Positions 48 to 9,876 of a stretch of DNA of 12,557 bases are shown piece by piece. The stretch comes from Candidatus Woesearchaeota archaeon (GTDB taxonomy: Archaea > Nanobdellota > Nanobdellia > Pacearchaeales > GW2011-AR1). The stretch lies in contig CAZETU010000008.1 of NCBI GenBank assembly GCA_964514585.1, forward strand, positions 1 to 12,557, read 5' to 3'. The notes beneath the pieces were generated by a model that did no database searches, was not told where the DNA came from, and was given only the letters and a program-made list of their open reading frames with translations. The stretch's first letter is position 1, and the number at the start of each line of letters is the position of its first letter. The translations under genes and the position numbers were made by a program.

Positions 48-114
48 TGCTAACGATTAGTATATGAAGCGGAGCATCCCGCAGGGTGCTATGATTTCAT
101 ATACATTGTTAGCA
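48..114 (-). mobile_element. attC-like palindromic recombination site A (67 bp)
   Basis: TGCTAAC (48-54) and GTTAGCA (108-114) are inverted ends. Inner arms GTATATGAA (60-68)/TTCATATAC (96-104) and AGCATCCC/GGGTGCT also pair. It lies 18 nt after the SIMPL stop. Layout on the + strand is AAC-N5-GTATA...TATAC-ATT-GTT, the same as site B. Confidence 0.65.
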
Positions 115-132
115 CCTGTGCATGCTCATTTT

Positions 133-1041
133 TTATTTTTCTATATCAAATTTTATTTGAAGCATTAAAACAAATTCGACTGTCGGCTCAGTTACGATTG
201 GATTAATCACTTTATTAAAACCAGAGTAATTTATTTTGTCATAATAATATGTCGTGTTTTTCATTAAGTCTTTTCTCTTTCCAGAAGAACTATAGTTATA
301 ATATGCTTTGGTAATGTTTGGCGTATAACTTTTATAAAGTTGTTGAGGATAGAAGCTGTAAAATGATTCTCCGAATATTTCAGAGGATGATGACAGGGTG
401 ATATTGGTTGCTTTTACATATAATTCTTTTTTAATGTTGATTGCATCCATTGATGTCTGAAATAACTTTGTATAGACTTTATTTATGTCCGTTACGATGT
501 AGTCAACCTTCGCTAAATCATAAATCCCATAGTCAGCTGCTGTAACTATCATTTTATCAAGGTCTTTAATGTTTTTAAAACTTACAATTACATTTTTTTT
601 CTGCTCAAATCCGCTAACGTATTGCTCTGCATAATTTCCATTTACTTTATAATCAGATATTTGAGTTTGTGTTGTCATGTCTACATAAATGTCTGCCTGT
701 GCAATACCAATTTTTGTCAACGCTGAAATAAAATCTTGTATACGTTTGTCAATTTTTATGTTTGCGTCTTTTAATGTTGTTGAAGATTCTGAAACTCCAA
801 AAGTAGCTACATAACTGTCAGCTATGACATTTATTAAAACATTTGCTTGTATAACAAATGAGGTGTCCGACAAATAAAGTTTATCTACTGTTTGCGATTT
901 GTTTGTTTGGCTGTAATTGTAATGCTGTCCAATGACACTGTTACCACTCTGCTGTCCGAGAACTGTCAAAGCAAATAGAAATAATGTCGCACTGAAAATA
1001 GTTGTTTTCGATTTCATTTGATTAAAGTTTTTGTTATTCAT
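133..1041 (-). CDS. SIMPL (DUF541) domain protein, probably exported
   Basis: 302-aa ORF with a hydrophobic N-terminus (TTIFSATLFLFALTVLG). The segment VLINVIADSYVATFGVSE...IQDFISALTKIGIAQADI...GFEQKKNVIVSFKNIKDLDKMIVTAADYGI fits the SIMPL pattern. The true start may be the second Met (MKSKTT). Confidence 0.75.
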   Translation of the reverse strand: MNNKNFNQMKSKTTIFSATLFLFALTVLGQQSGNSVIGQHYNYSQTNKSQTVDKLYLSDTSFVIQANVLINVIADSYVATFGVSESSTTLKDANIKIDKRIQDFISALTKIGIAQADIYVDMTTQTQISDYKVNGNYAEQYVSGFEQKKNVIVSFKNIKDLDKMIVTAADYGIYDLAKVDYIVTDINKVYTKLFQTSMDAINIKKELYVKATNITLSSSSEIFGESFYSFYPQQLYKSYTPNITKAYYNYSSSGKRKDLMKNTTYYYDKINYSGFNKVINPIVTEPTVEFVLMLQIKFDIEK

Positions 1042-1079
1042 AAATAATTGTCCGATATTCTGTTGTCTTTTTGCATTGG

Positions 1080-1209
1080 TGCTAACGGTTTGTATAAGAA
1101 TAGTAGCCGACTGCGGTACTCAAATCTTTCAATTTACGAGGAAGTTGAAGCGGGCTACAACCATTGAATTTACTGCTATCTCGGCTATTATTTTTATACA
1201 TTGTTGTAG
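1080..1209 (-). mobile_element. attC-like palindromic recombination site B (130 bp)
   Basis: TGCTAAC (1080-1086)-GGTTT-GTATAAGAAT...ATTTTTATAC-ATT-GTTGTAG (1203-1209), with inner TAGCCGA (1104-1110)/TCGGCTA (1181-1187). It begins 8 nt after the DUF6155 stop. Its outer heptamers do not match each other but match the far ends of the two adjacent cassettes. Confidence 0.7.
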
Positions 1210-1217
1210 GGCGTATT

Positions 1218-1727
1218 TCATTCAAAATGTTCATAATATACATCTGCTAAATAATCGTGAAATCCCCAGCCAATATTTTTTGTTTCTTCAACTATTTCAA
1301 ATGCTCTGTCTTTATATTTACTTAAAATCCCTTCTTTGTCCATTAATTCAAGTGATGTTCCATAGGCGTTTTCAATGCTTGAATAGAAATTTTCATCAAT
1401 ATCTCCGAATTCATTGGTTAATTCCACGCCACACTCAACATAATACAATAACAAATCAGCGATACTTTCTTTTGAAGTTCCCAGTTTTTTAAAATCATTT
1501 ATTGCTTTTCTTGAAATTGACAATCTTAATCTATCCCCACGTTTTGGATAAAATCCTTCTCGAACTTTTTCTCTATATTGTTCCAGTATTTTACTTTCAT
1601 CTGGATTGATATAAAAGTCAAAATATTCTTTAACGGGTTTAAACTTCTTGTAGAGTTCTGAAATATGTTTTATCAAAGTCTCTTTTTCAAGTTTATTCAA
1701 TTCCGATTTTACTTCTCTTAGTCCCAT
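1218..1727 (-). CDS. DUF6155-like helical protein of unknown function
   Basis: 169-aa ORF. The pattern ELNKLEKETLIKHISELYKKFKPVKEYFDFY...KVREGFYPKRG...SISRKAINDFKKLG...IADLLLYYVECG resembles the Bacteroidota DUF6155 family (recognised by eye). It starts 5 nt after the upstream stop. Confidence 0.65.
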   Translation of the reverse strand: MGLREVKSELNKLEKETLIKHISELYKKFKPVKEYFDFYINPDESKILEQYREKVREGFYPKRGDRLRLSISRKAINDFKKLGTSKESIADLLLYYVECGVELTNEFGDIDENFYSSIENAYGTSLELMDKEGILSKYKDRAFEIVEETKNIGWGFHDYLADVYYEHFE

Positions 1728-1732
1728 AATTA

Positions 1733-2671
1733 TTATCCACCAATATTTTTCAATGAAAGATTTATCAATTCTTTTGTGTCTTCAAAATCCGTTATATTCT
1801 TGATTGTCAATTCCAAATCACCAGTTCCAAAATGTCCGATGTTTCTAACATCTCTTGCTTGTTTTGGCAGTTTTTCTATTTCGTCTGGATTTAATTTTAA
1901 GAAAAGCATTAACTTTTTTTTCTGTGTTTCAATACAAACAAAATTCTGCGTTGTTTTATATGCGATGTAATATTTCTTTGGTGTTTCTTCTATTGAACTA
2001 TCAAGGGTTACAATATATTCTCGAATTTCATTTAATAATTCGGTTAAATCGGCATTTACCTTATTGATATGTTCGTCAATAGCATAAATAGAATTCTTTC
2101 TTGTTTCTGCTGCTTTCTTTCCGGCGGCAACCATTACAGGATTTTTGCCATTGTTTTCAATCGAAGTTTGAGTTCTTGTTTCAGTTCTCTTATAAACCAC
2201 TTCAATACTGATTATTCCATTTTCATAAATCTTGTATTGCCAAAGTTCAATATTTGCACCCATAACTTGAACAGCGTGCAAATCATATTTTTTAAATTCA
2301 GGGGCAATACAAATTACTCTTATATCAGACCAGTCAACTTCAATATTTTCTTTCAGTACATTATTCACAGCTACTTGGAAATCTCCTTTATGGTCTGTAA
2401 TCCAATGTAGATAAAACAAACTTTGATTAATTAAGTCAGATGATGCAACTTTTTTATATTCAATTATTACAGGATTATTATCTTCTGAAATTGCTAATGT
2501 GTCAATTCTTCCAGAATGAATATTTCCAGTCGAAAATTCAGTTGCTATAAATCTACAATTGAAAAAGGTTTCTAAATTTTGTTCAACTAAATTCTGTAAG
2601 TCTTTTTCTAGTTTGAAATCAGTTGGTTTAATTCTGTTTACCTTTTTGTCTTTTATTTCAAATATTGCCAT
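1733..2671 (-). CDS. NucS/DUF91-like PD-(D/E)xK endonuclease domain fused to a C-terminal DUF5655 domain
   Basis: 312 aa. The N-terminal LEKDLQNLVEQN...GRIDTLAISEDNNPVIIEYKK carries the E...ID...ExK nuclease motif. The C-terminal KKYYIAYK...NFVCIETQKKKLMLFLKL...RDVRNIGHFGTGDLELTI is typical of DUF5655. Confidence 0.8.
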   Translation of the reverse strand: MAIFEIKDKKVNRIKPTDFKLEKDLQNLVEQNLETFFNCRFIATEFSTGNIHSGRIDTLAISEDNNPVIIEYKKVASSDLINQSLFYLHWITDHKGDFQVAVNNVLKENIEVDWSDIRVICIAPEFKKYDLHAVQVMGANIELWQYKIYENGIISIEVVYKRTETRTQTSIENNGKNPVMVAAGKKAAETRKNSIYAIDEHINKVNADLTELLNEIREYIVTLDSSIEETPKKYYIAYKTTQNFVCIETQKKKLMLFLKLNPDEIEKLPKQARDVRNIGHFGTGDLELTIKNITDFEDTKELINLSLKNIGG

Positions 2672-2695
2672 TAGTTTTGTTTTTCTTTATATGCC

Positions 2696-2756
2696 CTACA
2701 ACATCTGTATAAACGCCAGTTCCGTTTATTTCGTTTATAGCTATACCTTGTTATTT
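2696..2756 (-). mobile_element. Degenerate attC-like or attI-like site C at the head of the cassette array
   Basis: CTACAAC (2696-2702)-ATCT-GTATAAACG...CGTTTATAGCTATAC-CTT-GTTATTT (2750-2756). The spacer is 4 nt rather than 5 and the stem is imperfect. CGTTTAT direct repeats lie at 2723, 2732 and 2799. Confidence 0.5.
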
Positions 2757-2923: not shown

Positions 2924-2986
2924 ACTGCAAGCATATTATATTTATCAATTTCAACCTAAATTTTTTTAATGTAAAGATAAAAAATA

Positions 2987-3018
2987 TTTGGAATTTTAAA
3001 TCATTATCTGTATTTTTG
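2987..3018 (+). promoter_or_regulatory. Bacteroidota housekeeping-sigma promoter for the 174-aa gene
   Basis: TTTG (2987-2990)-N20-TATTTTTG (3011-3018) matches the TTTG-N19-21-TAnnTTTG consensus. Both elements are conserved in the second copy. Confidence 0.75.
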
Positions 3019-3099
3019 GTAAATACAAAAATATAGCCCTTTGTGGCTGTATTTAAGAAAACTAATCAAAATAATTAATTTATTTAAAAAACTTAAGTT

Positions 3100-3624
3100 A
3101 TGGCATTAGACAATTTAATTAAAGTATCGTTTACTGAAGAGGAAATTGGTAAACTAAACAAAAGTATGGAGGAAATAGTAAGTGTATTATCTGGCAAGGT
3201 TATAAACCTAACTCCCGAAGAACGCAGACAGTATGGTAGTATTGGCAATAATACTCAATACTGGATAGATAAAGTAGATACATATATGGTACAAAACCCA
3301 AAGCTTGTGCCTTTTTATTTGAGTAAAGAAGAATTTGACAAAGACAGGTTGGCTCGTAGTATATTTTTAGATTTGATAAAACAATCAAATAGTATTTTAG
3401 AAAGTATGGAAGATACCGGTATGTTGCTAAGTACCGATATTTATCATAATGCATTGGCATTTTACCAAAATGTGCGTTTGGCTGCAAATCAGAATGTGCC
3501 GGGTAGTACAAGCATTTATGAGGATTTGGCAGCACAGTTTCCTGGTCGTCCTGCATCAGTAACAGGCGAACCTGTTCCCGGCGCAGAAGTTTATATTGAG
3601 CAAGAAGACTCCGAAAATAAATAA
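3100..3624 (+). CDS. Conserved hypothetical alpha-helical protein, copy 1 (174 aa)
   Basis: ORF with its own consensus promoter and terminator. Motifs INLTPEERRQYGSIG, NPKLVPFYLSKEEFDKD and DIYHNALAFYQNVRLAANQNVPGSTSIYEDLAAQF resemble a widespread uncharacterised Bacteroidota family (recalled, not searched). No catalytic motif is recognisable. Confidence 0.85.
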   Translation: MALDNLIKVSFTEEEIGKLNKSMEEIVSVLSGKVINLTPEERRQYGSIGNNTQYWIDKVDTYMVQNPKLVPFYLSKEEFDKDRLARSIFLDLIKQSNSILESMEDTGMLLSTDIYHNALAFYQNVRLAANQNVPGSTSIYEDLAAQFPGRPASVTGEPVPGAEVYIEQEDSENK

Positions 3625-3645
3625 TTAAATATCTTATAAAATATT

Positions 3646-8945: not shown

Positions 8946-9130
8946 TTATTTAACGTGAGCTTGGGGATAAGAAAGAAACATAAAAACAATTGTCATTTTG
9001 AGTGGATTTTAGGAGTGAAACGGAGAAAATTTGTATCGAAAAATAGAAAATGATTTGTTTTCGATACAAAATTCTTGCAGAATTTCACTCAAACTGACAC
9101 CAATTTCTTAAATCAAACTCTCGTTATTTA
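8946..9130. mobile_element. Palindromic MITE-like or attC-like insert (171 bp between 7-bp direct repeats TTATTTA)
   Basis: Absent from copy 1. TTATTTA at 8946-8952 and 9124-9130. Ends TAACGTGAGCTTG/CAAACTCTCGTTA pair 11/13. Inner stems include TTTGTATCGAAAA (9030-9042)/TTTTCGATACAAA (9058-9070). Confidence 0.8.
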
Positions 9131-9648
9131 TTTTCGGAGTCTTCTTGCTCAATATAAACTTCTGCGCCGGGAACAGGTTCGCCTGTTACTGATGCAGGAC
9201 GACCAGGAAACTGTGCTGCCAAATCCTCATAAATGCTTGTACTACCCGGCACATTCTGATTTGCAGCCAAACGCACATTTTGGTAAAATGCCAATGCATT
9301 ATGATAAATATCGGTACTTAGCAACATACCGGTATCTTCCATACTTTCTAAAATACTATTTGATTGTTTTATCAAATCTAAAAATATACTACGAGCCAAC
9401 CTGTCTTTGTCAAATTCTTCTTTACTCAAATAAAAAGGCACAAGCTTTGGGTTTTGTACCATATATGTATCTACTTTATCTATCCAGTATTGAGTATTAT
9501 TGCCAATACTACCATACTGTCTGCGTTCTTCGGGAGTTAGGTTTATAACCTTGCCAGATAATACACTTACTATTTCCTCCATACTTTTGTTTAGTTTACC
9601 AATTTCCTCTTCAGTAAACGATACTTTAATTAAATTGTCTAATGCCAT
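9124..9648 (-). CDS. Conserved hypothetical alpha-helical protein, copy 2 (identical to 3100-3624)
   Basis: Nucleotide sequence is identical to copy 1 over all 525 bp. Confidence 0.85.
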   Translation of the reverse strand: MALDNLIKVSFTEEEIGKLNKSMEEIVSVLSGKVINLTPEERRQYGSIGNNTQYWIDKVDTYMVQNPKLVPFYLSKEEFDKDRLARSIFLDLIKQSNSILESMEDTGMLLSTDIYHNALAFYQNVRLAANQNVPGSTSIYEDLAAQFPGRPASVTGEPVPGAEVYIEQEDSENK

Positions 9649-9729
9649 AACTTAAGTTTTTTAAATAAATTAATAATTTTGATTATTTCTCTTAAATACA
9701 GCCACAAATGGCTATATTCTTGTATTTAC

Positions 9730-9761
9730 CAAAAATACAGATAATGATTTAAATTACCAAA
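9730..9761 (-). promoter_or_regulatory. Bacteroidota promoter for copy 2
   Basis: Minus strand TTTG (9761-9758)-N20-TATTTTTG (9737-9730). Confidence 0.75.
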
Positions 9762-9876
9762 TATTTTTTTATTAATTCTGCGTTTTTTTGTTCTCCTTTT
9801 TTTTGTTACTTTTGCTAAACTAAATACTTATAACTATAAGAGAAATAAAAAACACTACGCATTTTAGCGGAGTGTT

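Follow-up and report, generated by a model that had tools for sequence, protein, structure and literature searches.

Positions 1-2759 of contig CAZETU010000008.1 very probably represent a recombinase-less fragment of a Bacteroidota-type, integron-like gene cassette array. The contig (12,557 nucleotides; hereafter the window, or contig C8 of its assembly) was analysed over its whole length and had been binned with a DPANN archaeon, Candidatus Woesearchaeota archaeon (assembly GCA_964514585.1). Three co-oriented palindromic sites, named A, B and C, bound two complete minus-strand cassettes, and the two ends of each cassette are perfectly complementary to each other. Sites of the same class are common in the Bacteroidota, and in three cultured marine isolates of this phylum the arrays begin at the end of a gene encoding a Xer/XerA-like tyrosine recombinase. 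The system is an integron-like variant that is independent of the integron integrase IntI, and the window contains a fragmentary instance of it.

Sites and cassettes of the array

An earlier note on this DNA, made from the sequence alone, had described three AAC...GTATA...TATAC...GTT palindromes between co-oriented minus-strand genes, and direct reading of the sequence finds them at the positions claimed (Table 1). On the minus strand, each site consists of about seven unit-specific bases, the triplet AAC, a 3-nt spacer, the box GTATA, a variable core, the box TATAC, a spacer of 4-5 nt, the triplet GTT and again about seven unit-specific bases; GTATA and TATAC are referred to as the L boxes. 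Read on the coding strand, the two spacers of sites A and B have lengths of 3 and 5 nt, and those of site C measure 3 and 4 nt.

At the ends of cassette 2, GTTAGCACC (positions 108-116) perfectly complements GGTGCTAAC (1078-1086) over 9 bp, and at the ends of cassette 1, GTTGTAGGGC (1203-1212) perfectly complements GCCCTACAAC (2693-2702) over 10 bp. Outside the fixed triplet, these matches comprise 6 and 7 bases, which would occur by chance with probabilities of about 2e-4 and 6e-5, respectively. The flanks within site B have only the AAC/GTT triplets in common, and the same is true for site C. The complementarity of the cassette ends and the mismatch between the outer heptamers of site B, both of which had been pointed out before, were hence confirmed, as were the cassette lengths of 1032 and 1616 bp and the shortness of the leaders (30, 44 and ~43 nt). 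The R'' flank of site C is without a partner; a complement was looked for upstream and none was found.

The GTATA/TATAC motif is present in three copies in the assembly of 1,036,865 bp, all of which lie in this array. A generalised scan of the whole assembly for hairpins composed of AAC, a stem and GTT, with any L boxes allowed, revealed nothing else above a reversed-sequence control, and a scan of the window against Rfam gave sub-threshold chance matches only. Neither target-site duplications nor T-runs were found at the sites of the window.

Table 1. Features of the cassette array and its upstream edge (ORF, open reading frame)
Feature	Positions	Strand	Description
Third cassette, start only	1-53	minus	TT at 53-52, leader ~43 nt, ATG at 10-8; cut by contig end
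Site A	49-116	minus	medium class, 59 nt from AAC to GTT (52-110); closes cassette 2
Cassette 2	54-1085	minus	1032 bp, one ORF (133-1041) of 302 aa, SIMPL/DUF541 (Pfam PF04402, E 4e-9)
Site B	1078-1212	minus	long class, 122 nt (1084-1205); closes cassette 1, R' end starts cassette 2
Cassette 1	1086-2701	minus	1616 bp, two ORFs
Cassette 1 ORF	1218-1727	minus	169 aa, DUF6155 (Pfam PF19652)
Cassette 1 ORF	1733-2671	minus	312 aa, PADLOC PDC-S18 (E 1e-113); DUF5655 (Pfam PF18899)
Site C	2693-2759	minus	decayed short class, 53 nt (2700-2752); 6-nt interruption of the 5' L box
Bacteroidota-type -7-like box, TAnnTTTG	2846-2853	minus	~90 nt upstream of site C, reads into the array

Distribution of the site class

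An exact pattern was derived from sites A and B and one site of another bin of the same archaeal genus (G056) and was used to search a species-representative genome collection, with about one chance match expected by estimate. The number of DNA stretches found to contain the site class is at least 119, and almost all of them belong to the Bacteroidota; the few matches in other phyla are located on short contigs of metagenome-assembled genomes (MAGs). The suggestion of the earlier note that the sites may form a Bacteroidota-specific class therefore holds, as the class is essentially confined to this phylum among these matches. Carriers belong to the Saprospiraceae, Flavobacteriaceae, Chitinophagales, Cytophagales and Crocinitomicaceae, and cultured representatives include Polaribacter, Tenacibaculum, Winogradskyella, Maribacter, Aquimarina, Flagellimonas and Robertkochia. 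A loosened pattern gave as much background as signal in 401 Bacteroidota genomes, about 20 of which contain genuine hairpin sites as judged by eye, a number to be read as a rough lower bound.

The sites fall into three length classes of 44-45, 57-60 and ~123-127 nt. Site A is 97% identical to sites in the unrelated Bacteroidota loci L111 and L067, and site B shares 79-80% identity with long-class sites in L054 and L036. Alignment of site C to short-class sites revealed a 6-nt insertion in its 5' L box. The rule of complementary cassette ends recurs in eight further loci (L027, L079, L120, L122, L126, L147, L149 and L150), and in other arrays the complementary ends often form perfect 10-mers, coinciding with the site before. 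Isolate genomes also contain scattered single sites and clusters without a recombinase. In the short-class site of locus L133 (6584-6667), five tandem 10-nt units extend over AAC, the spacer and the first bases of the L box, a pattern resembling the outcome of slippage or of partial recombination that was repeated at the 5' box.

Folding and strand asymmetry of the sites

Site A folds more stably than its shuffled counterparts, with z-scores of -5.5 for the plus strand and -4.4 for the minus strand, and is the only site of the window for which this is significant. Site B reaches a z-score of about -1.9, yet its inner stem of 20 bp is 90% complementary; in site C, the 5' L box is interrupted by six extra bases, and the fold is consequently weak (z about -1). 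When 70 medium-class sites were aligned, 94% of the cells of the proposed R, L and inner stems were paired, compared to 22-40% in slid controls. These sites contain 111 double changes, and the observed covariation, which speaks for folding of the sites, was reached in none of 500 shuffles.

On the top strand the conserved spacers form A-C mismatches, in place of which the bottom strand has G-T wobbles; in keeping with this, the bottom, non-coding strand is the more stable one in 134 of 150 sites. For site A, the folding energies are -16.8 kcal/mol for the bottom strand and -13.2 kcal/mol for the top strand. Judged from this asymmetry, the substrate of recombination is probably the folded bottom strand, as in integrons.

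Recombinases linked to related arrays

In three isolates, the start of an array could be captured together with a tyrosine recombinase gene, which is co-oriented with the cassettes, and the array begins at or just after the recombinase stop codon. Polaribacter sp. HL-MS24 possesses five co-oriented sites within ~26 kb downstream of a same-strand gene for a tyrosine recombinase of 402 amino acids, whose stop codon lies inside a half-site consisting of an L'-like box, 4 nt and GTT. The 10 bases from this docking GTT perfectly complement the box that closes the first cassette, and in the site of this cassette GTATA/TATAC is replaced by GGCTA/TAGCC, a natural compensatory change. In Winogradskyella sp. 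A2, the docking GTT is located 28 nt past the recombinase stop codon, and the ends of the first cassette are perfectly complementary. In Tenacibaculum sp. C7A-26P2, the stop codon is followed by a 20-bp palindrome and then GTT, and the ends of the first cassette are again complementary. Only a half-site is found at the recombinase end, whereas a full site follows each cassette; therefore, the coding strand can be assigned as the top strand, and the crossover can be placed at the GTT that bounds each site downstream.

The three linked recombinases share 38-52% identity with each other, and their best-scoring model is NF040815 (XerA-type). On the integron integrase model TIGR02249, they align with positions 7-180 and 240-314 only, thereby skipping the IntI insertion, and PF00589 is matched by them without interruption. 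Among solved structures, archaeal XerA proteins are the closest, and VchIntIA, which is matched in two pieces, comes next. By these comparisons, the linked recombinases are Xer/XerA-like and have no counterpart of the IntI-defining insertion. The Polaribacter and Winogradskyella proteins carry ~100 additional N-terminal residues. A recombinase of this kind is encoded in 8 of the 119 listed loci of the site class, and in six of these eight it is located upstream of the site on the same strand. The earlier note had named an IntI-type enzyme with the integron-specific insertion as the partner to look for; this expectation does not agree with the array-linked enzymes of the relatives.

Recombinase genes of a different setting were observed in a Saprospiraceae genome (G069, locus L152, 4379-13638), in which a cassette site has four tandem 2.4-kb units just upstream of it, each with genes for a Xer-like recombinase of 275 amino acids and an IS91-family transposase.

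The array of the window is an orphan fragment

No recombinase was found next to the array, none of the array-linked type was found in the assembly, and a search of the assembly for IntI gave no match to TIGR02249 above the cut-off. The only tyrosine recombinases that came up in this search were these: contig C1 has a Xer protein, C3 and C9 have weak phage-type integrases, and C16 has a run of three ORFs. Given the polarity of the array, a recombinase would be expected at coordinates above site C; this site is instead followed by 340 bp of AT-rich DNA and then by an unrelated gene on the opposite strand, and no remnant of a recombinase was detectable beyond site C. At the other end, a third cassette begins at 53-52, and the array therefore continues downstream past the contig end. 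With no recombinase upstream, a decayed upstream-most site (site C) and a downstream part that is cut by the contig end, the array of the window is an orphan fragment resembling a cluster of attC sites lacking integron-integrase (CALIN). This agrees with the CALIN-like status proposed in the earlier note, which had placed the recombinase elsewhere.

Several other features of the region and the assembly were recorded. An inverted duplication (2979-3100 and 9648-9769; 94% identity over 122 bp), which comprises the region upstream of a 174-aa gene, brackets a receptor/sulfatase operon and abuts the upstream edge of the array; it may have truncated the array. A palindrome at 8946-9130 (178 bp) was considered as a further cassette site and rejected, as it is flanked by a 7-bp target duplication and has no GTATA/TATAC boxes. 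The 174-aa gene is duplicated, and this element, which is MITE-like (miniature inverted-repeat transposable element) and possesses AAC...GTT-like ends, lies at the stop codon of the second gene copy; the empty site of the element is found at 3611-3625. Its outer flank has 11 bases in common with the flank of site C, for which the chance probability is estimated at ~9% in such AT-rich DNA. The run on contig C16 (205-2954 of a 3.5-kb contig) consists of three consecutive tyrosine recombinase ORFs of 339-431 amino acids, resembles a recombinase-trio element and is unrelated to the array.

Proposed mechanism and points against it

Each cassette begins with TT and about seven unit-specific bases; after a short leader come one or two ORFs, then the complement of the unit-specific bases, AAC and a hairpin-forming site. 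We infer that a site-specific tyrosine recombinase inserts such cassettes, and excises them, in the form of circles and would exchange strands at the GTT/AAC triplet; with exchange at this position, the sites of a linear array would be hybrids, and the two ends of each cassette would therefore be complementary. In the related intact arrays, the acting enzyme would be the Xer/XerA-like recombinase whose gene lies directly upstream in the same orientation, and the docking site would be the one at or just past its stop codon. The cassettes of the window would be stranded unless a recombinase acts in trans.

Several observations weigh against this interpretation of the window and its sites. The window contains no recombinase gene, and site C looks inactive. 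In one Saprospiraceae genome, the recombinases near the sites adjoin IS91 transposases. The first five pairs of the L stem are invariant by construction of the search pattern. Two bulged bases are located on the 5' arm of the bottom strand, and the extrahelical bases of classical attC sites lie on the opposite arm; the analogy to recognition by IntI is accordingly loose. Finally, none of the 20 best Bacteroidota homologue loci of the 312-aa gene of cassette 1 is flanked by sites of this class, and this particular cassette was not met in a second array of the same type among these loci. The same 20 loci contain no ORF of ~169 amino acids at the place expected for the DUF6155 partner, as judged by ORF sizes. 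Homologues outside of such cassettes are usual for captured genes.

In bacteria, the integron is the textbook device for capturing genes. The sites found in Flavobacteriaceae, Saprospiraceae, Chitinophagales, Cytophagales and others suggest that a large part of the Bacteroidota possesses a parallel gene-capture system that employs a different recombinase. With rather more doubt than confidence, the window can be seen as part of a phylum-wide Bacteroidota analogue of integrons, with a Xer/XerA-like enzyme devoid of the domain regarded as the hallmark of integron integrases, folded single-stranded sites and docking at the recombinase's own stop codon, of which the rAID-1 arrays described below would be the gut branch and whose cassettes, in the window one with a candidate defence gene, would be shared with other cassette systems in the bins of small archaea. 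If so, the capture of cassettes by folded sites would not depend on the IntI-specific domain, surveys that rely on the canonical attC model would overlook a large pool of cassettes, including candidate phage-defence genes, and the building of rAID arrays in gut Bacteroidales would gain a concrete site and crossover model. The array of the window itself is of smaller import, as it is an orphan and partly decayed fragment on a contig that is probably foreign to the archaeal bin.

Alternative explanations

The array resembles in many respects integrons, with IntI, attI and attC, and their integrase-less clusters, the CALINs (Cury et al. 2016, PMC4889954; Neron et al. 2022, PMC9024848). The cassettes are co-oriented and mostly promoter-less, and each ends in an imperfect palindrome that is bounded by AAC and GTT. 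The sites of the linear array are hybrids in which each cassette start complements its own inner box, the site length is very variable, and the bottom strand folds better. Furthermore, the docking site adjoins a tyrosine recombinase gene in the relatives, recombinase-less clusters are scattered in genomes, and one cassette of the window carries a candidate defence gene. The differences concern the linked recombinase, which lacks the integron-specific insertion, has an N-terminal extension, is co-directional with the cassettes and has the docking site at its stop codon, as well as the sites, in which the L boxes and both spacers are conserved in sequence and the spacers are asymmetric. The bulge also lies on the other arm than in attC. 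Of the features of a classical integron, AAC/GTT palindromes after the cassette ORFs and G|TT hybrid sites are present, and an IntI with the additional domain was found neither in the assembly nor next to the related arrays of the three isolates. The array works like an integron but is not classified as one, because the feature that defines IntI was tested and not found.

The array could still be the remnant of a classical integron, a true CALIN with ordinary attC sites served by an IntI elsewhere in the source organism. The triplets, palindromes that are imperfect and 44-125 nt long, hybrid sites and a bias towards the bottom strand would all fit attC, and one site-bearing Saprospiraceae genome contains an IntI pseudogene above the TIGR02249 cut-off, which is located far from the sites. 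However, the array-adjacent enzyme lacks the IntI insertion in all three isolates with a captured array start, and the spacers show sequence conservation and asymmetry (3 versus 5 nt). IntegronFinder surveys are also nearly empty for Bacteroidetes, for which version 2.0 lists nothing but In0 elements and a single integron, in Salinibacter (Neron et al. 2022, PMC9024848), although the site class is common there. This explanation is considered improbable. 

Slightly less probable still is that the sites are double-stranded, dif-like Xer sites, so that the cassettes would be modules of the pdif type moved by the housekeeping recombinases XerC and XerD. The pdif modules of Acinetobacter plasmids are bounded by 28-bp double-stranded sites in alternating orientation and possess neither hairpins nor a dedicated enzyme or array platform. 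Both systems consist of gene modules bounded by Xer-type recombination sites, and the recombinases linked to the present arrays are Xer-like by sequence. The sites of the window, however, are co-oriented hairpins of 53-122 nt, and across the class (44-125 nt) the stems covary and the strand asymmetry is consistent; moreover, at the head of the arrays stands a dedicated recombinase gene, whose product carries an N-terminal extension of its own.

A third alternative concerns the source of the DNA. The core of the bin is archaeal, as indicated by the large subunit of PolD (DP2) on contig C1 (1081 bits). C8 has a G+C content of 31%, compared to 34-39% for C1-C7, and is an outlier in tetranucleotide composition (second principal component, z ~3). 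It encodes the only protein of the assembly with a sorting tail of the type IX secretion system (T9SS), a SusC-type TonB receptor with a CarboxypepD_reg domain, which was found in none of the 48 other genomes of the genus, and a sulfatase-family protein with full-length homologues in Bacteroidota. On the grounds of composition, gene content and site class, C8 is probably a mis-binned Bacteroidota contig and not archaeal. Contigs C9, C12 and C14, which are small and have G+C contents of 31-32% like C8, may be further pieces of a foreign (Bacteroidota) genome in the archaeal bin; C12 and C14 show the same tetranucleotide shift, and C9 deviates mainly on the first principal component.

If C8 truly resided in the DPANN archaeon, the Bacteroidota-type array and its neighbours would have been acquired across domains. 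The binning of C8 with the archaeal core would fit this possibility, as would two same-genus bins, the only finds of a DNA search of 40 relatives and a pattern search of 48 genus members: G056 has a contig with one site of the class after a gene whose C-terminus resembles a T9SS tail by eye, and G017 carries, in a cassette context of another kind, a copy of the 5' end of the 312-aa gene with 87% identity. The low G+C content and deviating tetranucleotide composition of C8 as well as its T9SS-tail protein and SusC-type receptor argue against it, and the site-class matches in non-Bacteroidota bins are all located on short MAG contigs. Archaeal residence is considered slightly less likely still than the two preceding alternatives. 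Integrons and CALINs have been described in archaea on the basis of IntI and the canonical attC model, and an exchange of cassettes between domains was proposed (Ghaly et al. 2022, PMC9668308). The present array is likewise a cassette array in a small-archaea MAG, and the archaeal arrays are mostly integrase-less, too; unlike in that study, the archaeal bin is probably a binning accident here and the site class is bacterial. The array of the window should therefore not serve as evidence for cross-domain transfer.

That the palindromes are REP- (repetitive extragenic palindromic), MITE- or terminator-like elements whose flank complementarity is unrelated to recombination is hardly credible: the MITE-like palindrome at 8946-9130 demonstrates that an unrelated element with AAC...GTT-like ends exists in the window, but the three copies of the site in the assembly all lie between co-oriented genes of one array, the unit-specific complementarity of their flanks is repeated in many genomes, and neither many dispersed copies nor target-site duplications or T-runs were found. 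The earlier note had named two findings that would contradict its proposal, genome-wide palindromes of this kind and a fixed gene order without palindromes in related genomes. Neither was encountered, the single same-genus homologue being located in a different cassette context.

Relation to rAID-1 arrays

Searches of the literature for the site sequence, Bacteroidota attC sites or integron-like arrays found nothing beyond the rAID arrays (recombinase-associated acquired interbacterial defence) and no paper with the site sequence; in the literature found, the system is described in outline only, for gut Bacteroidales. In the rAID-1 arrays of these bacteria, a gene for a XerD-like tyrosine recombinase is located 5' of co-directional short genes of low G+C content, which are separated by repetitive intergenic motifs "reminiscent of integrons", and recombinase-less scaffolds occur as well (Ross et al. 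2019, bioRxiv 10.1101/471110; PMC12247911). Members are recognized by a recombinase with at least 44% identity to B. fragilis BF9343_RS08045 and by a cargo of T6SS (type VI secretion system) immunity genes (Ross et al.). The sites, the crossover point and the mechanism were not described, and the biogenesis of the arrays was called an open question in 2025 (bioRxiv 10.1101/471110; PMC12247911).

rAID-1 is the nearest description in print, and the likeness refers to its published layout only. The arrays belong to the same phylum, possess repetitive intergenic sites and have a co-directional Xer-type recombinase at their 5' end in the relatives of the window's array. Conserved intergenic sites are shared between the window and other Bacteroidota (97% identity for site A, 80% for site B), and a co-directional Xer-like recombinase directly 5' of the array is present in Polaribacter, Winogradskyella and Tenacibaculum and absent from the window and its assembly. 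The cargo differs, as the window encodes a PDC-S18 candidate, DUF6155 and SIMPL proteins instead of T6SS immunity proteins, and the titles of 80 of the at least 119 pattern matches include one unclassified Bacteroidales MAG and no named gut genus.

Cargo and expression of the cassettes

By its sequence match, the 312-aa protein encoded in cassette 1 is a candidate phage-defence protein (PDC-S18), and homologues were found in 27 of 401 sampled Bacteroidota. The leaders of the window's cassettes contain no promoter-like box. It is a matter of speculation that the -7-like box upstream of site C (Table 1) may drive the array; the TAnnTTTG motif is not enriched in the window, with 32 matches against 23 expected.

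The copy of the 312-aa gene in bin G017 lies on contig C37 of this bin (locus L010; relevant regions 1-400 and 1296-1395) and is 87% identical to the 5' end of the gene (window 2429-2707). It is preceded by a different type of AAC...GTT site with a GC-rich core, a second, inverted copy of which is located ~900 bp away. A search for the core motif of this site across the genus gave an exact match on the G017 contig C37 only. The 312-aa gene thus seems to travel in two distinct cassette systems.

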